From an uncultured delta proteobacterium (GTDB taxonomy: Bacteria > Myxococcota_A > Polyangia > Polyangiales > Polyangiaceae): a stretch of 64,000 nt of DNA. Position 1 is the stretch's first letter; each line of letters starts with the position of its first letter. Made by a program: the position numbers and the translations under genes. Positions 2,093 to 58,436 of this stretch are shown in pieces. The notes under the pieces were generated by a model, which worked only from the letters and a program-made list of their open reading frames with translations, was not told the DNA's origin and ran no database searches. Location of the stretch: NCBI GenBank assembly GCA_963716725.1, contig CAVQUB010000014.1:1-64000 (forward strand). The letters are read 5' to 3'.

Positions 2093-2524
2093 CTAGTCGT
2101 CCGCGCGAGGACTCAGCACGACGCGTCGAACCCCGCGCACCAGCTGGGGCACGTTGAAGTTGAGGAGCAGCCCGAGCTGGCACCTGGAAACCCGAAGGTA
2201 GGCCATGACCTGAGCGAAGTGGACTGGCGTCAGGGACTCAACCGCCTTGAGCTCGACGACGACGCGGCCCTCGACGAGGAAATCGACCCGTCCTTCGCCA
2301 ACGACCTCGCCCTTGTACTCGAGTTCATAGCGGGCCTGCCGCGCGAACTGAATGCCGCGGCACCTGAACTCCACGACGAGCGCGTGCTCATATACGCCTT
2401 CTGTGAAGCCTGGCCCGAGCGCGCGGTGAACCTCGATGGCCGCCGACACGACCGCCCCGGATATCGCGTTCAATTCGGCGCTCGGCTCGACGACTCTTCC
2501 CAATCTGCTGGGTGCCCCGTCCAT
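2093..2524 (-). CDS. GxxExxY protein (PD-(D/E)XK nuclease-like family)
   Basis: GPGFTEGVYEHAL, RVDFLVEGRVVVELKAVE, AQVMAYL, GLLLNFNV. Start uncertain (2524 or 2602). Confidence 0.92.
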   Translation of the reverse strand: MDGAPSRLGRVVEPSAELNAISGAVVSAAIEVHRALGPGFTEGVYEHALVVEFRCRGIQFARQARYELEYKGEVVGEGRVDFLVEGRVVVELKAVESLTPVHFAQVMAYLRVSRCQLGLLLNFNVPQLVRGVRRVVLSPRADD

Positions 2525-2612: not shown

Positions 2613-3041
2613 GCGCGGAGAGCGCGGGGCACGCGGGGCACGCAGGGATTTCTTTGGTCTGGTTTCTCGACGCCCGCTTCGCGATGCCGCGACGATTCGA
2701 GCGATGGCACCCGAATCGAGTTCAGGCTCGAAGCGCTGACGGCGAGGGCGCACGTGGCCGAGCCCGCGAGCAGCGAGTCGACCCGCACCCCCCAAAAACT
2801 CTTCTCTGCGTGCGCTGCGTACCCTGCGTCCCCCGCGACTTTGGTTCTTTGGTCTGGCTTCTCGACGCCCGCTTCGCGATGCCGCGACGGTTCGAGCGCT
2901 GGCACCCGAATCGAGGTTGGGCTCGAAGCGCCGACGGCAGGGGCGTACGTGCTCGAGCTCGCGAGCGGCGTGTCGGGTCGCACCCCCAAAACTCCTCTCT
3001 GCGTGCGCTGCGTTCCCTGCGTCCCCGGCGACTTTGGTGCT
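2613..3041. repeat. REPIN-like repeat units B and C in tandem (period ~195 bp)
   Basis: ggtctgg(t/c)ttctcgacgcccgcttcgcgatgccgcgac at 2656 and 2851. 9-mer arrays at 2613-2648, 2803-2838 and 2996-3031. Confidence 0.9.
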
Positions 3042-6080: not shown

Positions 6081-7853
6081 ATGCGCACTTCGTCCGTTGC
6101 CATCGGGATCGTGGGTTGTTTCAGCTTGCTCGCCACCGCGAGCTGTTCGTCGGACGAGTTTGAGCCCACGGCCAGCGGCGGAAAGAGCGGCGACGCGGGC
6201 GTCGGCGGGTCCGGCGGCGGCAAGGGCGGCAGCGGCGGCAGCGGCGGCGCGACCGGCGGCACTGGCGGCACTGGCGGCGCTGGCGGCACTGGCGGCACTG
6301 GCGGCGCGAGCGGCACTAGCGGCGGGGCGACCGGCGGCACCGGCGGCGCGAGCGGCAGCGGCGGCGCGAGCGGCGGCGCGAGCGGCAGCGGCGGCGCGAC
6401 GGGTGGAACCGGCGGAACGCCAGGCTGCAAGTCGGACACCGAGTGCGACGATCAGAAGGCGTGCAACGGCAAGGAGACCTGCGCGAGCGGGACCTGCAAG
6501 CCCGGAACGCCGGTGAGCTGTCCGAACTCCGACGCGGCACACTGCGTCGCCGAGTGCGTCGAGGTGAGCGCTGGCGTCTCCGCCTGCAACACCAAGGGCA
6601 AAGACGCGGACGGGGACAAGCATCTGGACAAGGCCTGCGCTGCGTCGAGCGTGACCGCGGACGACTGCGATGACAGCAAGCCGAGCGTGTACCCTGGCGC
6701 AACGGAGATCTGCGACGGCCTCGACAACGATTGCAACGGCAAGGACGAGCTCGACGAGGGCACGCCGCCCGTGGGCGGCAGCGCGAATTTCTCGGACGGT
6801 TCGTCGGACTCGATCCGGCCGGCCATCGCGTGGTCGCCGACGAACAAACACTACGGGGTGGTCTGGCTGGACGTCGCCGTGGGCATTCGCTACGTGCGCA
6901 TGAGCCCGGCGGGCAGCATGGTCGGCACGCCGGTCACGGTCTCCGCGCAGCTGCAGCCGGCGCGCATCGCCTGGAGCGGCGCGCATTTTGGCGTCGCGTG
7001 GCACGACTCGCAGAAGATCTACTTCCGGCGCGTGGCGCCCGACGGGACTTTTCCCGAAGCTGCCAAGGTCGTCAGCGCTGCCAACGCGAAGGCCTCGGAT
7101 CCGGATCTCGCCGCGACCCCTTCGGGGTGGGCGACGGTCTGGTCGGACACGCGGGCCAGTACCTTTGGCCTGCTCCACGCGCGGTCCATCGGAGCGGACG
7201 GCGTCGTCGCCGGAACCAGCGACACACAGGTCGGCAACACCGGGGGCAGCAACAAGTCCCCATCCGTGGCCAGCAACGGCGTAAGCTTCATGGTTGCGGC
7301 CGAGCGAGGCGCGCTCTCGGTGGCCAACCAGATCCAGGGCTTCAACCTGAGCTCGGTCCTCGTGGCCACCGGTGAGAAGATCGTCTCGGCAGATCCGCCG
7401 CCGACCGGGATCATCGCGGACCGACCCGTCGTGGCGTCCGCCGCGAACGGCTGGAGCTTCGCGTGGCGCGAGTCCTCGTCGGGGGGCCTGAGCCTGCGCT
7501 ACTACGAGCAGCTCGCGAGCGGGGCGGCCGGGTGCGCGCCGGTCGCCGTTCCGATCCCCCAGAGCCTCTTCGTGGGCGGAGTCGCCGCCCGTGGCAGCTC
7601 GCGCGTGGTCGTGCTCGGCCAGGAGGAGGGCGTGCCCGCCAAGGCGCGGTTGGTGCGCTTCAAGGCCGGCTGCGTCTCCCCGGTGCAGTACACGATGGGA
7701 CTCCCCGACGCTCCGAACCTCGACTACATGGGCATGGCGGTGGCGTGGAGCGACAACAGCTTCGTGGCGATGTGGGTCGATCAGACCACCGGCACCTACA
7801 CGCTTCGGCGCTGGGTGAGCGGGCCCAACCTGTGTGACGCTCCGGTGCCCTGA
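6081..7853 (+). CDS. Lipoprotein with Gly-rich linker and MopE-like metal-binding repeat
   Basis: RBS aggagg, lipobox TASC, DCDDSKPSVYPGATEICDGLDNDCNG motif, beta-rich C-terminus. Confidence 0.8.
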   Translation: MRTSSVAIGIVGCFSLLATASCSSDEFEPTASGGKSGDAGVGGSGGGKGGSGGSGGATGGTGGTGGAGGTGGTGGASGTSGGATGGTGGASGSGGASGGASGSGGATGGTGGTPGCKSDTECDDQKACNGKETCASGTCKPGTPVSCPNSDAAHCVAECVEVSAGVSACNTKGKDADGDKHLDKACAASSVTADDCDDSKPSVYPGATEICDGLDNDCNGKDELDEGTPPVGGSANFSDGSSDSIRPAIAWSPTNKHYGVVWLDVAVGIRYVRMSPAGSMVGTPVTVSAQLQPARIAWSGAHFGVAWHDSQKIYFRRVAPDGTFPEAAKVVSAANAKASDPDLAATPSGWATVWSDTRASTFGLLHARSIGADGVVAGTSDTQVGNTGGSNKSPSVASNGVSFMVAAERGALSVANQIQGFNLSSVLVATGEKIVSADPPPTGIIADRPVVASAANGWSFAWRESSSGGLSLRYYEQLASGAAGCAPVAVPIPQSLFVGGVAARGSSRVVVLGQEEGVPAKARLVRFKAGCVSPVQYTMGLPDAPNLDYMGMAVAWSDNSFVAMWVDQTTGTYTLRRWVSGPNLCDAPVP

Positions 7854-9456: not shown

Positions 9457-10827
9457 ATGCGGCTCTCCTTCGAACACGGCACCGTCGTCATCAGCGATCC
9501 TCCCGATCTGGATCTCGGGTTTGCTCCGGGACTGATCTGGGATCCACGCGTCGCGCTCTGGCGCGCGCCGGCTCGCTTCCACTCGGATCTGGTGCGCGCG
9601 CTGCGGGCGAAGAAGCTGCCGCTCTTGGACTCGGTGCGACCGCGCCCTTCGCCGCGCATGGCCGAGTGGGCCCAGCTCGAGCTGAGGCCCTACCAGCAGG
9701 GCGCGCTGCTCGCGTGGACGCTGGCGGATCGCCGGGGCCTGGTGGTGCTGCCCACGGGCGCGGGCAAGACCCGGGTGGCCATCGCGGCGCTGGCGGAGCT
9801 GCGTCTGCCCGCGCTGGTGGTGGTGCCCACCCGCGCGCTGCTCTCGCAGTGGCACGCAGAGCTGAGCCGCGTCTGCCCCGAGCCGGTCGGCATCTGGGGA
9901 GATGGCGAGCGCGTGCACGGCAACGTGACCGTGGCGACCTTCGAGAGCGCGTATCGGTTGATGCCGGAGCACGGCGCGCGCTTCGACGTGGTCGTGGTCG
10001 ACGAGGTGCATCACTTCGGACTCGGCGCGCGCGACGAGCTCTTGGAAATGAGCGTGGCGAAGCACCGCCTCGGCCTGACCGCGACCCCGCCAGACGCGGT
10101 CGCGCTGGCGCGCCTCGATGCGCTGGTGGGCCCGGTGGTCTACGAGCTCGGCCTCGCCAATCTCGCGGGCACCTACCTCGCCGACTTCGATCTGGTGGAG
10201 CTGCGCTTGCCCCTCGATGCCGACGAGCGGCTGCGCTATCAGCGCGATCATCAGCGTTTCGCCGAGGTCTTCCGGGGATTCATCCGCAGCAGCCCCGGCG
10301 CGAGCTGGCAGGACTTCACCAGCGTCGCCATGCAGTCGGCGGAGGGGCGCGCCGCGCTCGCGGCCTGGCGCCGCAGTCGGCGGCTGCTCGGCCTCACGCG
10401 CAAGAAGCTGGCGGCCGTGCACGAGATCCTGGAGCGACACCGGAGCTCGAAGCTGCTGATCTTCACCGCGGACAACGACGCCGCCTACGCCATCTCGAAG
10501 CGCGAGCTGGTGATGCCCATCACCTGTGAGATCCGCCGCAAGGAGCGGGTCCGGGTGCTCTCGGCGTTTCGCGAGGGCACCATCCGCGCCCTGGTCTCGT
10601 CGCGGGTCTTGAACGAGGGGCTCGACGTGCCCGACGCCGATGTCGCGGTGATCGTGGGCGGCACTCAGGGCGAGCGCGAGCACGTGCAGCGCATCGGGCG
10701 CCTCTTGCGACCCGGTCCTGGCAAACGAGCCACGGTCTACGAGCTGGTGAGCGCCGGCACGCGGGAGGTCGCGCAGTCGCGGGAGAGGAGGCGGGGTCTT
10801 GCTGCCGCGAGCGCTGCTCTCGTCTAG
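9457..10827 (+). CDS. SF2 helicase, XPB/Ssl2-like
   Basis: LRPYQ, PTGAGKT, DEVHH, GLTATP, LNEGLDVP, QRIGRLLR. Confidence 0.92.
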   Translation: MRLSFEHGTVVISDPPDLDLGFAPGLIWDPRVALWRAPARFHSDLVRALRAKKLPLLDSVRPRPSPRMAEWAQLELRPYQQGALLAWTLADRRGLVVLPTGAGKTRVAIAALAELRLPALVVVPTRALLSQWHAELSRVCPEPVGIWGDGERVHGNVTVATFESAYRLMPEHGARFDVVVVDEVHHFGLGARDELLEMSVAKHRLGLTATPPDAVALARLDALVGPVVYELGLANLAGTYLADFDLVELRLPLDADERLRYQRDHQRFAEVFRGFIRSSPGASWQDFTSVAMQSAEGRAALAAWRRSRRLLGLTRKKLAAVHEILERHRSSKLLIFTADNDAAYAISKRELVMPITCEIRRKERVRVLSAFREGTIRALVSSRVLNEGLDVPDADVAVIVGGTQGEREHVQRIGRLLRPGPGKRATVYELVSAGTREVAQSRERRRGLAAASAALV

Positions 10828-13308: not shown

Positions 13309-14672
13309 TGGACCGCCGATTGCTCGAGAGCGCGTGGCCGGCAGACGAGCCGCCGCAGGGGTTCGCGGAGCGGGTCGTGGCGCACACGACCGCGACCGCG
13401 AAGAAGCGGGCCCCGCGTGCGAAGGTTTGGGTGGCAGCCTTCACGGTGGTGGCAGCGGCGGCCATCGCCCTCTTGTGGCTCATGCCCGGCGCGCCGAGCA
13501 GCGGTTCACACCTCGCGCACGAACGCGTCGAGTTGCAGCTCGGGCGGCGCGCCACCGCGGTGCTCGAGAGCGGCGCCAAGATCAGCTGGCGCGGAGCCAT
13601 GATCGAGCAGAGCGAGGGCGATGTTTTCTATCGGGTGGAACCTGGCGGCGCCTTCGTCGTGAAAACTCCTGCGGGCGACGTGAGCGTGCTCGGAACTTGT
13701 TTCCGAGTGCGGGTGGGCGCGCTGGCCGCGAAAGGAGCGCAGGAGATGAAACGCAAAGACGTGGCGGTGGCAGCGGGCAGCGCGGCCCTGGCGGCGATGG
13801 CCGTGGTGACGGTGTACGAGGGCAAGGTGCAGCTCTCGCACGCGGGGCAGCGAGTGACGCTTGGCGCCGGAGAGTCGGGCAAGGTGGGGCCGGCGGGCAC
13901 GAGCAAGGTGTCGCCCGACGAGCTGGCCGAGGCCGAGCGCAGCCTGAGCGGCCCCGAGGGCGGCGCGCTGGCGGCGGCCAACGAGAACCTCTCGAAGGAC
14001 ATCGCGGACTTGAACAAGCGCCTGGGTTCCATCGAGAAGGAGAAGTCGCGTCTCGAGGAGCAGCTGTCGACCGCGGAGCACGAACTGGCGAAGCGTACGG
14101 ATGGCGGCGCCGCGCGGGGGCGACATGAGTTCGATCTCGATACGCAGGATTGGAGCGAGCTCGCGAAGGACGGCACCATCAAGTACCGCCACCCCTGCTT
14201 CAAGCCCAACGGCTGGACGCCTGGTCCCGAGCGGATGGAAAAGCTCGGGCTCGCGCCGGACGACATCGAGCCCATCGAGTCGGCCTACAAACGATCCTAC
14301 GAGCGTCTGTGGAAGACGCTGCGGCCGCTCTGCGCCAAGTTCATCGGCAACGCGGATGTCGTCGAGGGGCTTGGTCCCGACATTTGCACCCACGTGGTGG
14401 TCGATGCGATGCGAAAGAAGGACAGCGCGGCGGTGAGCGAGGCGATGCGACAGGTCGCTGAGATCCGCGCCGGACAGCGCCCGGCTCCCGTCGCGGGCAA
14501 AGAACAGAACCCGGTCTTCGATCTGTTCTACGCGCTCACCGGAGAGATGGGTGCCTTCGAGTCGGAGTTGGCGCAGACCTTCGGTCCGGAAGACGCCAAG
14601 CGCCTGGCGTATTCGAAGGAGATCTGCGCGGGCCACAGCACCTTTGGGGGACCGGGCCCGCGGGAGAAGTGA
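13308..14672 (+). CDS. FecR-like anti-sigma factor with coiled-coil C-terminal region
   Basis: Coupled to the sigma gene; TM helix; FVVKTPAGDVSVLGTCFRV and VTVYEGKV FecR motifs. Confidence 0.8.
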   Translation: MDRRLLESAWPADEPPQGFAERVVAHTTATAKKRAPRAKVWVAAFTVVAAAAIALLWLMPGAPSSGSHLAHERVELQLGRRATAVLESGAKISWRGAMIEQSEGDVFYRVEPGGAFVVKTPAGDVSVLGTCFRVRVGALAAKGAQEMKRKDVAVAAGSAALAAMAVVTVYEGKVQLSHAGQRVTLGAGESGKVGPAGTSKVSPDELAEAERSLSGPEGGALAAANENLSKDIADLNKRLGSIEKEKSRLEEQLSTAEHELAKRTDGGAARGRHEFDLDTQDWSELAKDGTIKYRHPCFKPNGWTPGPERMEKLGLAPDDIEPIESAYKRSYERLWKTLRPLCAKFIGNADVVEGLGPDICTHVVVDAMRKKDSAAVSEAMRQVAEIRAGQRPAPVAGKEQNPVFDLFYALTGEMGAFESELAQTFGPEDAKRLAYSKEICAGHSTFGGPGPREK

Positions 14673-14789
14673 GCTAATAGTCCTCCCCGCGCGGCTGGAG
14701 TAGAACGCTTGCGGTACAGTCATGGCTCGAATCTGTCCCTCGCCTCGGCGGAGCTCGCTTCGGCGGACAAGATCCGGGAGGATCTACCG

Positions 14790-16040
14790 ATGAAGCGCCT
14801 CGCGTTCACCCTCACGTCGATCGTGGTCCTCGTTCTAGGTGCTTGCTCGTCGTCGAGCGGCGGCGGCGGCGCCGGCAGCAGCTGTCAGTCCTTCTGCAGC
14901 CACCTGCAGACCGGGTCGAACTGCGAAAAGCTCGATCTCGCCGACTGCGCTTCGAAGTGCGAAGCAAAGCTCTCGAGCTGCCCGGCGCGGGGGCCGGCGT
15001 TTCTGTCGTGCCTCTCGACGCTCCCGTACACTTGCACCGTTCCGGGCTACGCGGTGTCAGGTGCACAGGGTCAGGCGCTGCCCAGCCCCGTCTTCGTCGA
15101 CGTCGTGGACGGCACACTCGAACTCCATGACGCCACCTGCGCGGCGCGCGCCGAGGAGTTCAACACCTGCGCGCCGATCGGCAACGGCGGCAGCGGCGGC
15201 AACGGCGGCAGCGGCGGCAACGGCGGCAGCGGCGGCAACGGCGGCAGTTTCGGGGGAGCTGGCGGTTTCGCCGGATCTGGCGGCGTCACCGGTGGAAACG
15301 GCGGCGGTGGCGCTGGCGCTGGGGGCGCCGGCGGCAGCGGTGGAAACACCTGCACTTCGGCGTTCCCCCACTGGTGCCCGCTGAGCGGGACGTGCTGGGC
15401 CAAAGACCCGGATTGCAGCACCGCGACCAAGTGCGGAGGGGACTGGGTCGTCTGCTCCGCGGCCCACGGCGCCCAAGGGTACGTGGTCGACTGCAAGTGG
15501 AAGACGTGTGTGGCGACGCCGACGAGCTGCACGCAGTCCAGCTATCCGGTCTTTTGCCCGACCCGCCACGGTGCGGCGCCGGAGTGCTACTCCCCCGGCA
15601 CCGCATGCTCGACGGTCGTCTACTGCGACGGCGTCGGTGCGAAGTCCTGCAAGCAGCCGAATCAGGCCGTCGACTGCGCGAACAACGTGTGCCTGACGCC
15701 GAAATCCGCCGAGTCGTCGGATGCGGCGTGCAGCAACAACGTCGATGACGACGGAAACGGTTTCATCGACTGCATGGACTTCCACTGCCTGGCAAACCCT
15801 TCCGTCACGGTGTGCAAAGGCGAGACCGATGACCTGGCGTGCAGCAATAAGCTGGACGATGACGGGAATGGGTTCACCGACTGCAAGGACTACTCGTGTC
15901 AGATCAGTCCTTCCGTCACCAAGTGCGCGGCGGAGCGCACGGACGCCGAGTGCCACGACGGAGTCGACAACGACGCCGACGGCAAGATCGACTGCGCGGA
16001 CACGTCGTGTTTGGGCAACCCGTTCACGACCTGTCCGTGA
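14790..16040 (+). CDS. Cys/Gly-rich lipoprotein with three C-x-N/D-x-x-D-D-D-G-N-G-x-x-D-C-x-D repeats
   Basis: RBS ggagg, lipobox LGAC, NGGSGG repeats, Ca-binding-like repeats. Confidence 0.8.
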   Translation: MKRLAFTLTSIVVLVLGACSSSSGGGGAGSSCQSFCSHLQTGSNCEKLDLADCASKCEAKLSSCPARGPAFLSCLSTLPYTCTVPGYAVSGAQGQALPSPVFVDVVDGTLELHDATCAARAEEFNTCAPIGNGGSGGNGGSGGNGGSGGNGGSFGGAGGFAGSGGVTGGNGGGGAGAGGAGGSGGNTCTSAFPHWCPLSGTCWAKDPDCSTATKCGGDWVVCSAAHGAQGYVVDCKWKTCVATPTSCTQSSYPVFCPTRHGAAPECYSPGTACSTVVYCDGVGAKSCKQPNQAVDCANNVCLTPKSAESSDAACSNNVDDDGNGFIDCMDFHCLANPSVTVCKGETDDLACSNKLDDDGNGFTDCKDYSCQISPSVTKCAAERTDAECHDGVDNDADGKIDCADTSCLGNPFTTCP

Positions 16041-16059
16041 GCCGATGCCGCGAGCCACC

Positions 16060-16633
16060 CAGTGGACCGCGGCGCTCGGTTCGCGCCGCGCCTTTGTCGC
16101 CGCCGGACGTCAGCGCACGCGCCGACCGCTCGGAGCCCTTGGTTGCCGAGTTCTGAGCGGTGTAGGCTGCGCTCATGGGGGCCGCCGCCAGCGCCGCGCG
16201 CAGGCGACCGACGGTGTATTCGGCGGATGTCGAGCTGAAAGGGAGAGAAAGCAGCGGGACGAGCTGGGGTCGGATCGAAGGGCGAGAGGACCCCGTCGGA
16301 GACGTGCGTGAGCGACGGCTCGCCCACCACGGCGAACCCACCCGCGATGCAGGTCGCGCCGTCGGGCGCCGCGGACGCGCAGGGCGCCTCCCGGGCTCGG
16401 CCCCAGGTGCCGACCTCGGTCACGGGCACGCCGCCGTCGAGGGCTTCGACGCCCTCGGTGGTGAGCACGCTTTCGCTGCCCTTGCGACGGCAGGTGCGCG
16501 CGGGATCCGCGAAGGTCGACGGGACGCCCATGCAGTCCCCGCGCAACACGGCGCGAACGCGGCGAACACCTTCGGTCGGAAATCCGAGATCCATGACCCG
16601 GCTCACGCTCAGCGCATCGACCGGCTCGAGCAC
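16060..16633 (-). pseudogene. Fragment of a SUMF1/formylglycine-generating-enzyme domain protein
   Basis: CIAGGFAVVGE...FSPFQLD then, after a frame change, AEYTVGRLR. No signal peptide and no downstream RLPTEAEWE part. Confidence 0.55.
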
Positions 16634-16647
16634 GCTCGCAGGTCCGC

Positions 16648-18093
16648 TCAGAAGGGCGCTTCGACGGCGACGCCGCCTAGGGCAGGGCCTGCCGTCGCCG
16701 GCTTGCCGGAGGGAGCTGGCGTCGCGCTCGGTGGTGGCGGCGCGTTGGCTGAGGGCTCTGCCTTGGTCGGCTTGGCGCCGGCGCGCGTGGTCTTTTGGGC
16801 TGGCTCGGAGACAGGCGCCGCGTCGGCCAAGGCCGCGGGCTCGAGGGCAGCGCTACCGGGACCTGCCATGGGCGCCGCCTGAATGGCCGGAGCTGCGCTG
16901 TCGACGGGCGTGGCCGAGGCTTGCTCCGTGCTCGCTGCCGGCTCCGGTGTGGTGCCGCTCCGCACACCGACGACTATCCCGAGCACGGCAATGAGCGCCA
17001 CGCCACCGGCGACGAACGGCCACGCGGGCACGCGTCGGATCGGGACGACGGGGGAGTCGTGGGTGGTGGAAAAGGCACCCGCGGTCCGAGGCGGGCCCAC
17101 CGCAGCATCGCTGGGATTGGCGGGAGTGAGGGCGTGGGCAACGCCGCTTGGGATCTCGCTTGCCCCCGGCGCCAGCAGCGACTCCCGCGGAAATGCTTGG
17201 ACCTCGGAGAACGACTGCGCGAGCTGGTTCGTGAACCGACCGAGCACCTCGAACGCGGGCTTCAAGTCCGCGAGCCTGGCGTTGCGATCCGTCTTCAGCA
17301 TGTCGCCTATCAAGCTGCGCATGGCCTGGGGCAAATCTGGCGCGACGGTATCGATGGGCGGAATCGAGCCGGTGGCGATGATCTTGAGTAGTTGGCCGAG
17401 ATTCTCGCCGTCCACCGGCCTCACACCGGCCAGTGCCTCGTACAAGATGACCCCGACTGCCCAGACGTCCGCTCGCGCGTCGACGTCCTTCTCGCCGAAG
17501 ACCTGCTCCGGCGACATGTAGTAGGGCGTGCCGAGCATCGCGCCGGTGCGCGTGAGCTCCGCGGACTGGGCGGCTTCGGGGCGTTTGGTATCGAGTTTGG
17601 CGATGCCAAAGTCCAGGACCTTTGGCGACATCTGGCCTTCTTGCATGCGCGCCAGGAAGATATTGTCCGGCTTCAGGTCACGGTGAACGATGCCCGCGGC
17701 GTGCGCGGAGCCGACGGCCGAGATCACGGGAAGCATGATCGTCGCCAGCTCGGGCAAGGCGATTCGCCTCTCCCGCTCGAGCTTCTGCGCCAACGACTCT
17801 CCAGCCAAGAGATCCATCACCATGACGGGTGAGCTGTCATCCTGAAGGAAGATGTCGTGCACTCGGATCACGTTCGGGTGATTGACCGAGGTGGCCGCTC
17901 GGGCCTCGCGCATGAAGCGGCGCACCGCGCCCGCATGTTGCACTGCCTCGGGCTTGAGAAACTTGAGCGCAACCTGGCTGCGGGTGAGCGTGTGCGTCGC
18001 AGCCCACACGGATCCCATGCCGCCTTCGCCGATCAGGCGCTCCAGGTGGTACCGGCCGCCGATGACCACCCCTGGACACAGGTCCACCGTCAT
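16648..18093 (-). CDS. Membrane-anchored Hanks-type Ser/Thr protein kinase
   Basis: IGEGGMGSV, HRDLKPDN, DFG, GTPYYMSPE, TM helix. Confidence 0.96.
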   Translation of the reverse strand: MTVDLCPGVVIGGRYHLERLIGEGGMGSVWAATHTLTRSQVALKFLKPEAVQHAGAVRRFMREARAATSVNHPNVIRVHDIFLQDDSSPVMVMDLLAGESLAQKLERERRIALPELATIMLPVISAVGSAHAAGIVHRDLKPDNIFLARMQEGQMSPKVLDFGIAKLDTKRPEAAQSAELTRTGAMLGTPYYMSPEQVFGEKDVDARADVWAVGVILYEALAGVRPVDGENLGQLLKIIATGSIPPIDTVAPDLPQAMRSLIGDMLKTDRNARLADLKPAFEVLGRFTNQLAQSFSEVQAFPRESLLAPGASEIPSGVAHALTPANPSDAAVGPPRTAGAFSTTHDSPVVPIRRVPAWPFVAGGVALIAVLGIVVGVRSGTTPEPAASTEQASATPVDSAAPAIQAAPMAGPGSAALEPAALADAAPVSEPAQKTTRAGAKPTKAEPSANAPPPPSATPAPSGKPATAGPALGGVAVEAPF

Positions 18094-21696: not shown

Positions 21697-21839
21697 GTGG
21701 GCGCCAAACGCCACGCCGGAACGCGTTGCGACGTGGTGAATGTCGCGGTGGACGCCAAACGCCACGCGGTCGCGCGTTGCGACGTGGTCGATGTCGCGGT
21801 GGACGCCAAACGCCACGCGGTCGCGCGTTGCGACGTGGT
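21697..21839. repeat. Intergenic tandem repeat, 51 bp x ~2.8, with internal hairpin
   Basis: Unit gtggacgccaaacgccacgcggtcgcgcgttgcgacgtggtcgatgtcgcg at 21697, 21748 and 21799. Confidence 0.9.
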
Positions 21840-21883
21840 GGGTGTCGTGGAGTGGCCCCGCTATTTGTGGGGGCCGGCCCCGT

Positions 21884-34393: not shown

Positions 34394-36045
34394 TGTTGCG
34401 AACCACCACCGGGCTTGGCGTCGCACTGCTGCTCTCCGCGGGCGTGGCCCGCGCAGCGGATGTGCCGGCCAGTCCCGCCGACTACGCGTCGAAGCTGGCG
34501 GGGCTGAAGCCGGGCGACACCCTGAAGCTCGCGCCGGGCGACTACAAGTCCGGCATGAACCTGTTCAACGTGCACGGAGCAGCGGGCGCGGCCATCGTGA
34601 TCGAGGGGCCCCCGAGCGGCGCGCCCGCGCGCTTCTTGGGCGTGAACGGCAAGAACACCATCGACATTCGCGACGCCAGCTTCGTCACCATCAGGAACTT
34701 GCTGCTCGACGGGCAGAACATCGACGGCGTGGACGCGATCAAGGCCGGGGGGCAGGCCTCGAACTTCGCGCACCACATCACCATCGAGGGCTGCACCATC
34801 ACGGGTCACGATGGCGGACAAACCAACCAGCAGATCGTGGGCATCAGCACCAAGATCGTGGCCTGGGACTGGGTGATCCGGAAGAACGTCTTCGACGGCG
34901 CCGGCACCGGCGCTTATCTGGGCAACTCCGACGGAACGCGGGCCTTCATTGGCGGGCTGATCGAGAACAACCTGTTCAAGAAGACGCTTGGCTACAACAT
35001 GCAGGTGAAGCACCAGCTCCACCGCCAGCAGGCCGACGTGCCCAGCGTGCCCACGGACAAACGCGTCACCATCATCAGGCACAACGTCTTCATCAAGCAG
35101 AACTTGCCGAGCCCCGACGGAGCGCGGCCCAATCTCTTGGCGGACGGCTTTCCGGCGAGCGGTCCGGGCAGCGACGATCACTACGAAATTTACGGCAACT
35201 TTTTTTTCCACAACGACGGCGATGCGCTGTTTCAGGGCAACGGCCGGATCCATTTTCACGACAACCTCCTGGTCGACTCGAAGTTCCCGGCGGTGCGCCT
35301 GGCCGCCCATCAAGGCAAGACCGTGATCGACGCGCTGGTGTACGACAACACCATCTACGACACCGCCAGCGGTATCTCGTTCGGGAGCGCGCCGAGCGGA
35401 CAGAAGCTGGTGGCCGGCAACGCCATCTTTTCACCGCAGCCGCTGTCAGGCGTCACCGGTGCGATCGACAACGTCACTGGCACCGTGGCCGACGCGCTGA
35501 GCCACGTGGTCAGCCCGAGCAAGACCCTGGGACAGATGGACTTCTTCCCGAAGCCCGGCAGCAAGCTGAAGGCCGCGGCCGTCGACCTGTCGAGCGTCAA
35601 GGCTGACGTCGACTTCGATCGCGACTTCAACGGAACGCAGCGCGACTTCACCTACCGCGGCGCCTATCAGGGTGAGGGCACCAACCCCGGGTGGAAACCC
35701 GACGCGACGCTGAAGGGCACGACGGGGAGCGGCGGGACAGGCGGCGGCGGCAGTGGGGGAGCTGGGACGGGCGGCGCAAGCGCGGGCGCCGGCGGCGCGA
35801 GCACGGGCGGCGCGAGCACGGGCGGCGCGAGCACAGGCGGCGCGAGCACGGGCGGCGCGGGCACGGGCGGCGCGAGCACGGGCGGCGCGAGCACAGGCGG
35901 CGCGAGCACGGGCGGCGCGAGCACGGGCGGCGCGGATGACGATGGCGGTTGCGGCTGCAGGACGGCGCCCGTCGGCGGGAGCCTGCCATTCACGGTCGTG
36001 CTGGGCGCGGGGCTCGCGTTGGGCGCGCGCCGGCGCAGGCGCTAG
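34393..36045 (+). CDS. Parallel beta-helix surface protein with MYXO-CTERM
   Basis: Signal peptide, LKPGDTLKLAPGDY, beta-helix repeats, DDGGCGCRTA + TM + RRRR. Confidence 0.88.
   Translation: MLRTTTGLGVALLLSAGVARAADVPASPADYASKLAGLKPGDTLKLAPGDYKSGMNLFNVHGAAGAAIVIEGPPSGAPARFLGVNGKNTIDIRDASFVTIRNLLLDGQNIDGVDAIKAGGQASNFAHHITIEGCTITGHDGGQTNQQIVGISTKIVAWDWVIRKNVFDGAGTGAYLGNSDGTRAFIGGLIENNLFKKTLGYNMQVKHQLHRQQADVPSVPTDKRVTIIRHNVFIKQNLPSPDGARPNLLADGFPASGPGSDDHYEIYGNFFFHNDGDALFQGNGRIHFHDNLLVDSKFPAVRLAAHQGKTVIDALVYDNTIYDTASGISFGSAPSGQKLVAGNAIFSPQPLSGVTGAIDNVTGTVADALSHVVSPSKTLGQMDFFPKPGSKLKAAAVDLSSVKADVDFDRDFNGTQRDFTYRGAYQGEGTNPGWKPDATLKGTTGSGGTGGGGSGGAGTGGASAGAGGASTGGASTGGASTGGASTGGAGTGGASTGGASTGGASTGGASTGGADDDGGCGCRTAPVGGSLPFTVVLGAGLALGARRRRR
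35791..35934 (+). repeat. Coding tandem repeat, 15 bp x9 (GGAST linker)
   Basis: ggcggcgcgagcacg repeated. Confidence 0.9.
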
Positions 36046-36102
36046 TACCGCGCGGCAGAAGTTTCGCTGGTTTCTTTTCCGTGTGCGTGTCGAAACCAAA
36101 CG

Positions 36103-36230
36103 CGCCAACTTCTCGCACGAGGCTCGTTCACGTCAACCGACGACCTTGCGGCGAAGATCGACGCGTACGTCGCGTGGTAGCCGCAGACCGACCCACCCTT
36201 TCGCTGGTCGTACCGCCCCAAGTCGTGGGC
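36103..36230 (+). pseudogene. IS630-family transposase C-terminal remnant
   Basis: Manual translation RQLLARGSFTSTDDLAAKIDAYVAW*PQTDPPFRWSYRPKSW matches the IS630 RGSFxS..L...I..Y...PFxWxY tail. Confidence 0.7.
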
Positions 36231-36301
36231 CGAATCCAGAATAATCCCTCACTTTCTGCGAAGAAAGCCGCAACTGTTTCGGAGTGAGGCCCGACCCCAC
36301 G

Positions 36302-36485
36302 GGGATGGCACAGGAAGGGCGAAAGCTCGGAAGATTTCATCCTGGCGGCGGACTGGGACCGGGCAGAGTGAGCACGGGATGGCACAGGAAGGGCGAAAGC
36401 TCGGAAGATTTCATCCTGGCGGCGGACTGGGACCGGGCAGAGTGAGCACGGGATGGCACAGGAAGGGCGAAAGCTCGGAAGATTT
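36302..36485 (+). repeat. 74 bp tandem repeat (36 bp unit x3, identical 38 bp linker x2)
   Basis: gggatggcacaggaagggcgaaagctcggaagattt at 36302, 36376 and 36450. Confidence 0.95.
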
Positions 36486-36948
36486 GGGGATGGGACGGAC
36501 GAGGTGATCGGTGCGCTGATCGAGGTGCATCGGCATCTCGGTCCAGGGCTGATGGAATCCGCATACGAGGCTTGTCTATCTGCCGAGCTGTCCGAACGAC
36601 GGCTCAAGTTCGAGCGGCAGCGACCGCTACCAATCCGCTGCGGGGGCGTGCACCTTGACAGCGCCTATCGCCTCGACCTGGTCGCTTCCAGATCATATCC
36701 TCCTGGAACTCAAGGCGGTCGAGCGGCTGCTCCCGATTCATGAAGCGCAGGTCATCACCTATCTGCGCCTTTCGCAGTTGCCTGTCGGCCTGCTCGTCAA
36801 CTTCAACGTGACCGCGCTCAGAAATGGCCTGCGGAGGCTCACGCCTGACCACCCCAAATCCTTCCGCTCTTCCGCCCTTCCTGTGAGAGCCCAAATGAGC
36901 GCGGGTCTCAGGGGCGAATCCACTCGAACTTCAGCCGTGCGGCGCTAG
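36453..36948 (+). pseudogene. GxxExxY protein, +1 frameshift at ~36685-36690
   Basis: GPGLMESAYEACL...YRLDLV, then DHILLELKAVE...AQVITYL...LLVNFNV in the +1 frame. Confidence 0.88.
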
Positions 36949-37284: not shown

Positions 37285-37691
37285 TGGGTGGGTGCCGGCG
37301 CAGGTCCGGGAGTCGCCCCGCCCATCGCCGGAACGCAGGCCGGAGAGATGCACTGGTTGCCCGGCGCGCAGTCGTTGTTGGTCTGGCAAGGCCACGCGCA
37401 CTTGCCCGCGGCGGTGTTGCACCGGTGGGTGAGGCAGGCCGAGTCGTTCTGACAGGGGAAAGCCATGGCGCCAGGAGTACTCATCCCGGCCGCCGTGGGC
37501 TGGGGCGCCGGCTGCCCGTAGCCGGGTTGCTGCCCGTAGCCGGGTTGCTGCCCGTAGCCGGGCTGCCCGTAGCCGGGTTGCCCGTAGCCACCCTGTTGGG
37601 GCGGAGGCTCTTCGTCCTTCTTCTTGCAACCAACTATGACGAGCGCCGAAACGACGGTCGATACCACCAGACCAAGCAGGGCTTTCCGCAT
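37281..37691 (-). CDS. Small lipoprotein with QPGYG repeats and a Cys-rich domain
   Basis: RBS aggag, lipobox IVGC-KKK, (Q)QPGYG repeats, 8-Cys module. Confidence 0.85.
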   Translation of the reverse strand: MRKALLGLVVSTVVSALVIVGCKKKDEEPPPQQGGYGQPGYGQPGYGQQPGYGQQPGYGQPAPQPTAAGMSTPGAMAFPCQNDSACLTHRCNTAAGKCAWPCQTNNDCAPGNQCISPACVPAMGGATPGPAPAPTQ

Positions 37692-56548: not shown

Positions 56549-57103
56549 GTCGTGGGCCGAATCCAGAAAAATCCCCTCACTTTCTGCGAAGAAAGCCGCA
56601 ACTGTTTCGGAGTGAGGCCCGACCCCACGGGGATGGCACAGGAAGGGCGAAAGCTCGGAAGATTTGGGGATGGGACGGACGAGGTGATCGGTGCGCTGAT
56701 CGAGGTGCATCGGCATCTCGGTCCAGGGCTGATGGAATCCGCATACGAGGCATGTCTATCTGCCGAGCTGTCCGAACGACGGCTCAAGTTCGAGCGGCAG
56801 CGACCGCTACCAATCCGCTGCGGGGGCGTGCACCTTGACAGCGCCTATCGCCTCGACCTGGTCGCTTCCAGATCATATCCTCCTGGAGCTCAAGGCGGTC
56901 GAGCGGCTGCTCCCGATTCACGAAGCGCAGGTCATCACCGATCTGCGCCTTTCGCAGTTGCCTGTCGGCCTGCTCGTCAACTTCAACGTGACCGCGCTCA
57001 GAAATGGCCTGCGGAGGCTCACGCCTGACCACCCCAAATCCTTTCGCTCTTCCGCCCTTCCTGTGAGAGCCCAAATGAGCGCGGGTTCAGCCGCGCGGCA
57101 CTA
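56549..57103 (+). mobile_element. Left-truncated copy 2 of the IS630-like/GxxExxY element
   Basis: Near-identical to 36222-36906 without the 74 bp expansions. Right end ttcagccgcgcggcac-TA is a 14/16 inverted match to the left TIR of copy 1. Confidence 0.8.
56633..57086 (+). pseudogene. GxxExxY protein with the same +1 frameshift as the 36 kb copy plus a Y-to-D change
   Basis: ORFs 56465-57028 and 56835-57167 carry the two halves; AQVITDL instead of AQVITYL. Confidence 0.88.
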
Positions 57104-57851: not shown

Positions 57852-58436
57852 TCACTTCTTGGTGAAGCACTCGGTCAAACAGCCCGTGTCCAGGCAAGCG
57901 ATGAGGTCGCTGGTGGCGCCAGCCACCGTGCCGCAGGACGGGGTCGCGCACTGACCGGCGCAGGTGCCCTTGGCCGTGCTCGGATCCGTGCCCTTGTCGA
58001 GCTCGGCCGTGTAGCAGGTCTGGAAGCACGGCATTTCTCCGTCGCCATCCTTCGGGCCGCCCTCCCAGCAGGGGTTGCCCGGGGCCGTTGCCACGCAAAC
58101 CTGGAACTCGGTGCAGCATTTGGCCTTGATGCAGGTCTGACAGGCGTCGGTGGTGTCGCTGGGCTCACAGCTGCCGGGGGTGCCCGGCACGCCGCCGGTG
58201 GCCGGCTCGCACTCGTAGCCCGCCGAGCCGCCGGTCGCGCCGCCGGAGCCCGAAGCTCCGCCGGTTCCGCCGGTCGTTCCGCCGGTTCCGCCGGTCGTTC
58301 CGCCGGTTCCGCCGGTCGTTCCGCCGGTTCCGCCCGTGTTCTCGTCATCGCCGTCGCCGACTACGCAGCCGCCCATGATTGCGAACGAAGTGACCAATCC
58401 GACCGCTGCCAGTGTACGCCAAGCATTTTTCATCAT
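57852..58436 (-). CDS. Gly/Cys-rich lipoprotein
   Basis: RBS gggag, lipobox MGGC, GGTGGTT repeats (21 bp), CxxCIxxxCC module. Confidence 0.85.
   Translation of the reverse strand: MMKNAWRTLAAVGLVTSFAIMGGCVVGDGDDENTGGTGGTTGGTGGTTGGTGGTTGGTGGASGSGGATGGSAGYECEPATGGVPGTPGSCEPSDTTDACQTCIKAKCCTEFQVCVATAPGNPCWEGGPKDGDGEMPCFQTCYTAELDKGTDPSTAKGTCAGQCATPSCGTVAGATSDLIACLDTGCLTECFTKK

Follow-up and report, generated by a model that had tools for sequence, protein, structure and literature searches.

Inverted arrays of three short units bracket GxxExxY genes in an uncultured delta proteobacterium and in related loci

A 64,000-nt stretch of DNA from an uncultured delta proteobacterium (assembly GCA_963716725.1, contig CAVQUB010000014.1, positions 1 to 64,000 of the forward strand; hereafter the window) carries two closely similar copies of a small gene of the GxxExxY family (PF13366/TIGR04256), each enclosed by short periodic repeats in inverted orientation. 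The locus raises the question of whether such repeats belong to the gene, possibly as sites read by the encoded protein, or lie beside it for some other reason. An earlier interpretation of the same DNA, made from its letters and open reading frames (ORFs) and here called the sequence-only reading, had proposed that each GxxExxY lineage possesses a cognate repeat. This proposal was followed up in the window and in a set of related loci.

Inverted arms around two GxxExxY copies

The left arm of copy 1 (36450-36493, plus strand) consists of three 8-bp units, CACAGGAAG, GGCGAAAG and CTCGGAAG, followed by ATTTGGGG, and its core, CACAGGAAG-GGCGAAAG-CTCGGAAG-ATTT, is located at 36457-36485 in copy 1 and at 56637-56665 in copy 2. 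The right arm of copy 1 (36849-36892, minus strand) reads in reverse complement CACAGGAAG, GGCGGAAG, AGCGGAAG and GATTTGGGG, with the core CACAGGAAG-GGCGGAAG-AGCGGAAG-GATTT at 36856-36885. The window units are therefore described here as NN-CGGAAG, 8 bp in length and three per arm. Direct reading confirmed the left and right repeats that the sequence-only reading had listed for both copies, in sequence as well as in position, together with its perfect stretch of 13 bp, the core CACAGGAAGGGCG; the right repeat, given there in one form for both copies, is correct for copy 1, whereas that of copy 2 (57036-57065) carries a single mismatch (AGCGAAAG). In a repeat search the arms could be extended to 44 nt, with 77% complementarity and 355 nt between them in copy 1.

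The pattern CACAGGAAGGGCGRAAGNNCGGAAG, with up to three mismatches allowed, matched the window six times, compared to a mean of 0.00 in 100 dinucleotide-preserving shuffles, and the inverted-repeat scores of the two copies were 45 and 40, compared to a 99th percentile of 25 among 1700 random placements of the same span. A chance origin of the window arms is excluded on these two grounds. A second window pattern, GCGCGGAGCRCGCAGGGA, taken alone, gave five matches against 1.85 expected, a number reached in 4 of 100 shuffles and barely above chance. Copy 1 contains two further copies of the left arm (pattern matches at 36309-36333 and 36383-36407), each within one of two extra 74-bp tandem units at 36302-36449 (plus strand; repeat families and Tandem Repeats Finder) that have no counterpart in copy 2. 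The 74-bp tandem repeat spans 36302-36485 with 2.5 copies and 100% matches in Tandem Repeats Finder, and its non-arm part measures 38 nt.

GxxExxY coding matter is present between the arms, but the bracketed ORFs of the sequence-only reading are broken ones, with the N- and C-terminal pieces in different frames. In copy 1 the N-terminal piece occupies frame A (36453-36692, plus strand; TIGR04256 70 bits over profile positions 3-66 of 116, PF13366 66.7 bits) and the C-terminal piece frame B (36694-36894, plus strand; TIGR04256 53.7 bits over positions 70-114 of 116, Pfam 54.3 bits), the curated cut-offs being 35 bits for TIGR04256 and 22 bits for PF13366 (PDDEXK_3). Codons 2-11 of the N-terminal piece are the left arm and the tail of the C-terminal piece is the right arm; the arms thus overlap the ORF ends, as had been claimed, but stay outside the conserved domain. 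Alignment with six related loci revealed two 1-nt insertions common to both window copies, one at about 36685 (plus strand; GTCG[C]TTCC, in a column filled only in the window copies and empty in the six relatives) and one near 36886 (plus strand; GTGAGAGCCCAAATGA in the window, GTGCAATCCAAATGA in relatives), the ancestral TGA (36896-36898) being out of frame. Because these insertions split the frame and displace the stop, both copies are decaying pseudogenes. Neither has the uninterrupted ORF of about 115-140 amino acids (aa) expected of the family; the catalytic residues are readable in the translations (MESAYE, RLDLV and LELK).

A third GxxExxY gene in the window (2108-2524, minus strand; TIGR04256 136.7 bits, Pfam 134.2 bits, also found by tblastn) is intact, encodes 139 aa and belongs to a different lineage, with 45.5% identity to the family protein P0008 over 112 residues. 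It is surrounded by three ORF-less units of about 195-207 nt that end in CGCGGAG-type 9-mers. One of them (1641-1859) has a plus array, GCGCGGACA-GCGCGGAGC-GCGCGGAGC-ACGCAGGGA (1641-1677), and an inverted array (1830-1859), both of 9-bp units; the other two (2613-3027) comprise a plus array at 2613-2648 and inverted arrays at 2804-2834 and 2995-3027. What seems to be part of a fourth unit is located at about 1878-2080. All ORF-less units within the window are of the 9-bp type. The view that this 2 kb locus follows a like design with another sequence and period was thus borne out (9-bp CGCGGAG-type units there, 8-bp NN-CGGAAG units around the duplicated copies), and each of the two unit types in the window genome goes with a GxxExxY lineage of its own.

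Arrays around homologous genes and elsewhere

Homologs were sampled as the best 80 of at least 579 relatives from a species-genome scan with a clade alignment, and they came from Acidobacteriota, Chloroflexota, Planctomycetota, Cyanobacteriota, Myxococcota, Pseudomonadota, Bacteroidota, Methanophagales archaea and others. Together with the window, 85 genes were taken in, of which 84 could be scored by aligning the 150 nt that precede the domain with the reverse-complemented 150 nt that follow it. A bracketing inverted repeat scored above the 99th percentile of the null (1700 random placements) in 66 of the 84 genes and above the 95th in 72, whereas only 17 of 1555 control ORFs (100-200 aa, same loci) exceeded the 99th-percentile score. 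The inverted repeats are therefore neither absent from most of these homologs nor equally frequent around random genes.

Almost all arms consist of a T-rich stretch and AC, followed by three tandem 9-mers of the form NN-C-R-C-N-G-A-G, for example ACCGCAGAG-ATCGCAGAG-AACGCAGAG; CACAGAG units also occur, and the period is sometimes 8 nt. Strict arrays were found on both sides of 52 of the 85 genes. In 22 of these 52 elements the third heptad runs straight into the start codon, and 13 others have an ATG 1-11 nt away. The 66 significant cases comprise 30 genes whose stop codon precedes the right arm, 20 with the stop within this arm, 13 with the stop past it and 3 with premature stops. It is well supported that the window arms are the window-clade version of a three-unit architecture common to most sampled GxxExxY genes, which consists of three 8-9-bp units shortly upstream of or overlapping the start codon and an inverted trio at or just past the stop. 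Single arrays and ORF-less doublets of these units are dispersed between genes in the same genomes. The arrays can still be made out in orthologues that are nearly saturated at synonymous sites.

In intact relatives an ATG or GTG stands right before the left array and the stop just past the right one, so that the arms are translated as tails (MAQEGRKxGRF... and ...DHPKSxRSSALPVQSK). The alignment with relatives showed that these tail-coding arms vary at the spacer dinucleotides regardless of codon position, and the tail encoded by the right arm is disordered in the structural model (residues 119-130, predicted local distance difference test, pLDDT, <50); the constraint therefore acts on the DNA units and not on the encoded peptide.

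How far each lineage has its own unit is a separate matter. Some clades do have distinct units, namely CGGAAG or CAGAAG in the window clade, CACAAAG in cyanobacteria and CGCGAAG in Sphingomonas, and L076, a member of the window clade, has arrays of its own CAGAAG type at three other intergenic sites; most lineages, however, share C-R-C-N-G-A-G. Mapped on the protein tree, a check that the sequence-only reading had suggested, the CGC and CAC forms switch freely, with 12 changes for 14 rows, and no clustering of the CAC type was detected (96 of 500 shuffles as low), in a tree of 85 short proteins with 56 of 82 inner branches open and the GGAAG-type rows labelled 'none'. The proposal of a cognate repeat for every lineage thus stands in part.

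As an independent look, six plasmid or megaplasmid loci of cultured isolates were inspected, and clear arrays were present in three, from Bacteroides finegoldii, Bernardetia and Sphingomonas parapaucimobilis (CGCGAAG). Arms are rarer in more distant family members. In annotated records the gene is wedged, co-oriented, between housekeeping genes, as in fabD-GxxExxY-fabG, radA-GxxExxY and ade-GxxExxY. The cassette on the S. parapaucimobilis megaplasmid (L084, 1441-1905) nearly exactly fills the fabD-fabG gap, and its 3' end (GGAGGATAAgcATG) appears to provide the fabG ribosome-binding site. A GxxExxY gene with no detectable arms (score 16) was noticed at L063 969-1316, on a contig labelled as a Klebsiella pneumoniae metagenome-assembled genome (MAG), a label that may be a binning error.

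A regular expression for three units found 263 arrays in 1,196,298 nt and none in a mononucleotide shuffle. While 146 of the 263 arrays lie no more than 200 nt from a GxxExxY domain, 117 lie elsewhere; as estimated from the counts, array density is about 20 times higher within 200 nt of GxxExxY genes than in the rest of the loci. Among 97 convergent neighbouring pairs, 48 bracket a GxxExxY gene, 41 are ORF-less with 2-161 nt between the arrays and 8 have other contents, so that the ORF-less inverted pairs that had been proposed as a further check do exist in related loci. Taken together, the bracketing in most homologs, its rarity at control ORFs and the ORF-less pairs strongly support the association between gene and repeat.

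Other arrays stand beside aspS-like, recA, ftsW-like and murG-like genes, and NOV_C genes adjoin arrays in three cyanobacterial loci. Orthologous loci differ in length by 69 nt (L045 and L055) or 113 nt (L035 and L016), and the point at which they part comes directly behind the right arm's innermost heptad; the extra unit of L035 retains only the 3' end of the gene. At least some empty units are therefore deletion derivatives. A blastn comparison of 19 ORF-less interiors with the cassettes, looking for GxxExxY remnants, gave only array-type matches and one overlap.

The family to which these genes belong (PF13366/TIGR04256) is a very large one without known function: 37,904 representatives of 50% identity clusters match at E <= 0.001 and 18,473 at E <= 1e-10, and the one survey found to include it (PMC3424549) lists it as 'Unknown'. 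E18, D58, E68 and K70 (the E of GxxExxY, D, and E-x-K) are invariant in 61 sequences, and the model is a minimal PD-(D/E)XK fold (pLDDT 89, predicted template modelling score 0.80). Foldseek returned only weak PD-(D/E)XK neighbours (Cas4 SSO0001, AddAB, lambda exonuclease and Hjc, all with E >= 0.02), and a PDB sequence search with P0008 at E <= 1 gave only chance-level ORC3 hits. Strong purifying selection acts on the gene, whose protein is functional. The ratio of nonsynonymous to synonymous substitution rates (dN/dS), 0.02-0.12 overall, was 0.02-0.07 in the seven Terriglobales orthologue pairs that yielded estimates, three pairs having saturated dS and five pairs with L005 giving unreliable values, as L005 lacks 3 nt and was compared without gaps; among L001-L003 it was 0.08-0.10. 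In the protein tree, which is poorly resolved, phyla are interspersed and Methanophagales copies fall among those of planctomycetes and Chloroflexota. Two of these archaeal copies (L016 and L035) sit on very short branches among bacterial ones, pointing to either recent inter-domain transfer or mis-binned contigs. Among the top matches, P0118, P0119 and about 20 others are ~240-295 aa in length and have two GxxExxY domains per ORF as fused tandem copies, and P0134 starts with ...TTEGTEDTEAS..., a translated array.

An outer MITE-like unit in the window clade

The duplicated unit exceeds the arms. Positions 36222-36911 match 56549-57090 at about 98.5% identity (98.5% over 466 aligned columns and 98.3% over the upstream 117), and the copies with their outer ends span 36237-36911 and 56564-57090. 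The left end of copy 1 is a degenerate outer terminal repeat (36237-36258, plus strand; CAGAATAATCCCTCACTTTCTG), aligned by eye to the terminal repeat CTGAGGCATCCCCTCATTTGG of the related locus L001 and failing the limit of five mismatches; the right end (36891-36911, minus strand; CTGAGACCCGCGCTCATTTGG) matches the L001 repeat at 16 of 21 positions. The flanking 9-bp sequences, GGCCGAATC on the left (36228-36236) and GGGCGAATC on the right (36912-36920), agree at 8 of 9 positions and form a candidate target-site duplication. Copy 2 (56549-57090, plus strand) comprises a flank common to copy 1 (56549-56563), a degenerate left terminal repeat (56564-56586), the left arm (56630-56673), the N-terminal (56633-56872) and C-terminal (56874-57074) pseudogene pieces, the right arm (57029-57072) and the right terminal repeat (57071-57090).

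In L001 the terminal repeat is perfect over 21 of 21 positions (9879-9899 and 10386-10406) and is flanked by the direct repeat GACGCGGCG (9/9), and L004 also has the outer repeat with the flanking direct repeat GATTCCGCG (9/9); a 9-bp target duplication was looked for at the unit ends of L002 and not found. Right-end mismatches to the L001 repeat number three in L002, two in L004 and five in the window. Insertion of IS10 makes 9-bp target duplications. The first 13 nt of the terminal repeat agree at 11 of 13 positions with the Tn10/IS10 end sequence printed in PMC3159471. In the window clade the GxxExxY cassette is thus inside a non-autonomous unit of about 530 bp that resembles a miniature inverted-repeat transposable element (MITE) and is bounded by an IS10-like terminal repeat. 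This outer unit accounts better than the arrays for the duplication in the window.

The outer layer of the window clade, and this layer only, shares with IS4-family MITEs the 21-bp terminal inverted repeat (perfect in L001), in some loci a 9-bp direct target duplication (9/9 in L001 and L004, 8/9 in window copy 1), the absence of a transposase from inside the unit and the presence of two copies in the window. It differs from them in carrying a protein gene with inverted arrays of its own, in the degenerate ends of the window copies, in the missing duplication at copy 2 and in that canonical GxxExxY cassettes have no outer layer. The MITE features are present in L001 and L004 and only in part in the window. 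Among the 51 canonical elements, 9-bp target duplications at symmetric offsets of 0-44 were not enriched.

Immediately left of copy 1, the translation of one frame at 36046-36240 (...IDAYVAW-stop-PQTDPPFRWSYRPKSW..., broken by the stop) abuts the unit and looks, by eye, like what we take to be the C-terminal end of an IS630-type transposase; Pfam gave no match for its two stop-free pieces. Elsewhere in the window, low-complexity repeats rich in Gly/Ala/Ser or Pro/Gly/Tyr/Gln arise from 9-21-bp tandem units (6149-6434, 15137-15344, 35780-35934, 37510-37589 and 58257-58341), and a 51-bp tandem repeat with three copies and 91% matches lies at 21697-21847 (Tandem Repeats Finder).

What may read the arrays

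The interpretation that we put forward, at about even weight for and against, is that the arrays are putative DNA recognition or end sites for the encoded nuclease, forming a selfish cassette that would be REPIN/RAYT-like or homing-like. The units would be sequence-specific DNA sites for a minimal PD-(D/E)XK nuclease, three per end with the ends inverted, and would set the ends or the target of the cassette. An empty doublet would be a site acted on by the nuclease; the filled cassette would enter through repair or recombination, as homing endonuclease genes do, or would be kept like a RAYT among REPINs. As the left array abuts the start codon in many relatives, binding there would also regulate the nuclease's own gene. 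The window itself holds two dead copies, which the outer IS10-like MITE layer would have moved. More tentatively, and with some doubt on our part, GxxExxY genes and their three-heptad arrays may constitute an unrecognised class of nuclease-repeat replicator across prokaryotes, in which a predicted nuclease of ~125 aa would read C-R-C-N-G-A-G 9-bp units, set in inverted groups of three, as ends or homing sites and seed promoterless cassettes and empty hairpin doublets into the gaps of housekeeping operons, clades such as that of the window having retuned the unit to CGGAAG.

Comparison of the two arms in the 52 strict elements bears on whether they are kept as a stem or as units. Both arms carry the same inner spacer in 7 of 52 elements (cross-element rate 0.09) and the same outer spacer in 17 of 52 (cross-element rate 0.10); they agree at position 4 of the middle heptad in 23 of 52 (cross-element rate 0.44) and at heptad position 2, which is G or A, in 45-51 of 52. 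Within single arms, whose units do not pair with one another, all three units have the same base at position 2 in 93 of 104 cases, compared to about 39% expected. The differences between arms showed no G·U bias on the coding-strand transcript, with 30 wobble-compatible versus 25 incompatible transitions (p = 0.59) and 43 transversions among 98. Even in the window clade, pairing is lacking at the inner-spacer columns in 4-5 of 8 sequences. Taken as a whole, these comparisons indicate selection on the heptads as units, as would be expected of sites recognised by a protein more than of a plain stem.

Several observations weigh against recognition of the arrays by the nuclease. The sample is biased, since all its members are at least 53% identical to P0008, share one peptide pattern and represent one sub-branch of the family. 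The intact third gene of the window (2108-2524) has no clean bracketing arms (score 16) and only degenerate ones, and the plasmid homologs from Gemmatirosa, Treponema and Prevotella (three of the six) lack clear arms and show partial or different patterns. Outer terminal repeats beyond the canonical arrays exceeded the 99th percentile of the null in 0 of 51 elements and target duplications were likewise not seen, so that mobility of the array-bounded unit would be without a transposition footprint; window copy 2, too, has no target duplication and shares 15 nt of left flank with copy 1. At position 2, the concerted changes between G and A could be a simple effect of the base composition of the host. 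The arrays of the cyanobacterial locus L073 bracket three Uma2 genes and one HSDR_N gene and adjoin ordinary genes, indicating that arrays do not belong to GxxExxY alone and that a host factor could be what reads them. Finally, the arms of the window clade co-vary, with 88.7% of cells paired and two-sided changes in 10 pairs compared to 4.4 in shuffles, and the RNA fold of copy 2 is closed by the arm stem (-226.1 kcal/mol, z = -5.36, equalled by none of 100 shuffles).

The co-variation and the fold speak for an RNA stem, in which the purine-rich 5' arm, containing the ribosome-binding region and start codon, would pair with the pyrimidine-rich 3' arm and lock or insulate the nuclease ORF inside an operon transcript. 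Fold-back inhibition of hok-type toxin mRNAs and the RNase III stems of rRNA intervening sequences would be analogues. The position of the left array at or shortly before the start codon agrees with this, as does the orientation of the cassettes, which mostly follow their upstream neighbour (63 versus 18 by a crude ORF measure, and 5 of 5 annotated plasmid loci). Yet different phyla have one heptad in common, where a pure stem would be free to drift, and the features of the arms described above (inner spacer and heptad position 4 at the cross-element rate, no G·U asymmetry, many transversions and homogenised units that do not pair mutually) all run counter to pairing as the selected property. 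Single arrays and ORF-less doublets are moreover common, and no Rfam family matched: Rfam 15 gave no match at gathering score in the window, and seven related loci yielded only RNase P, tRNA and SAM riboswitch, with chance-level matches at E <= 1 in L061 8000-11000. An RNA stem is for these reasons an unlikely explanation, though one that deserves some weight.

Alternatively, the arrays could be an intergenic repeat read by the host, like repetitive extragenic palindromic (REP) sequences, with a role in mRNA stability, termination or nucleoid binding, among which nuclease genes insert or survive while GxxExxY does not recognise the arrays. The 117 arrays away from GxxExxY, many of which flank housekeeping genes (aspS-like, recA, ftsW-like and murG-like), and the Uma2 and HSDR_N genes of L073 are in keeping with such a repeat, and so is an empty doublet upstream of an aspS-like gene that is kept in several Terriglobales genomes. 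The heptad is, on the other hand, common to many bacterial phyla and Methanophagales, which have no obvious dedicated host factor in common; arrays are far denser near GxxExxY genes than elsewhere; the window genome has two unit types, each tied to its own GxxExxY lineage; and the dispersed arrays of L076 are of its own clade variant. We regard a repeat read only by the host as improbable. At 13900-16900, L073, a cyanobacterial MAG, contains four head-to-tail cassettes with CACRGAG array ends and 12 nt between neighbours; two of its three Uma2 genes are identical, and HEPN_Swt1/DUF499 and helicase genes nearby give the region the look of a defence island.

For the window alone, it is very improbable that the arms are subterminal parts of the IS10-like MITE (sites for its transposase or a host factor) unrelated to the GxxExxY gene: the unit that contains them does have an outer terminal repeat and a 9-bp duplication, with only 6 nt between the right arm and the right terminal repeat, but the layout is asymmetric, since the left arm is from ~55 nt (L001 and L004) to ~200 nt (window copy 1) away from its terminal repeat, the clade relatives L022 and L076 have arms with no IS10-like outer repeat detected, and 51 canonical GxxExxY elements of the same design include none with an outer repeat.

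Among known systems, the closest comparison for a nuclease that reads its flanking arrays is with REPIN-RAYT, in which REP doublets accompany a REP-associated tyrosine transposase, as described in PMC3337134, PMC3116915 and bioRxiv 10.1101/2022.05.22.493013. Both systems have a single small enzyme gene flanked by its own inverted repeats (here 66 of 84 genes bracketed) and non-coding inverted doublets with a short spacer dispersed between genes (here 41 of 97 pairs, and the dispersed arrays of L076), and in some lineages gene and repeats are kept by vertical descent under purifying selection. The defining feature is nevertheless lacking, because the GxxExxY enzyme is not a tyrosine HUH transposase of IS200/IS605 type but a predicted PD-(D/E)XK nuclease of ~125 aa (PF13366). 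The GxxExxY repeat is also built of three tandem 9-mers and is not a REP palindrome, and the gene lies inside host operons. Unlike REPIN-RAYT, the GxxExxY family presumably has many copies per genome and a wide horizontal spread, the latter also suggested by the protein tree.

Free-standing homing endonuclease genes, which as we understand them include PD-(D/E)XK types, likewise consist of a small nuclease gene in the middle of an apparently split recognition site, and have 'empty' sites, no target duplication and a spread over distant taxa. GxxExxY differs from them in having no intron or intein, in sites that are repeated arrays and not a unique host-gene sequence, and in homology arms that would measure only ~30-45 nt. 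Integron attC cassettes, again as generally understood, are also promoterless small ORFs placed head to tail between imperfect inverted repeats, as in L073 14104-16884; the GxxExxY repeats, by contrast, stand on both sides of each ORF and are tandem heptads, not R''-L''/L'-R'. No attC core sites or integrase were noticed on reading the window around the elements, where no search was aimed at them.

No published description of the arrays was found in a search that lay mostly outside subscription journals and did not cover supplements, and the nuclease-plus-repeat element is apparently undescribed. The window alone is of modest significance, as two dead copies on a MITE-like unit. For the family, a fixed conserved DNA motif beside the gene provides the first concrete and cheaply testable substrate hypothesis for PF13366/TIGR04256. 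If the nuclease does read the arrays, this would explain widespread intergenic hairpin repeats that gene callers sometimes translate (into peptides such as TEDTE) and might yield a very compact sequence-specific nuclease, and the short list of known protein-repeat replicators would gain a second class of enzyme.

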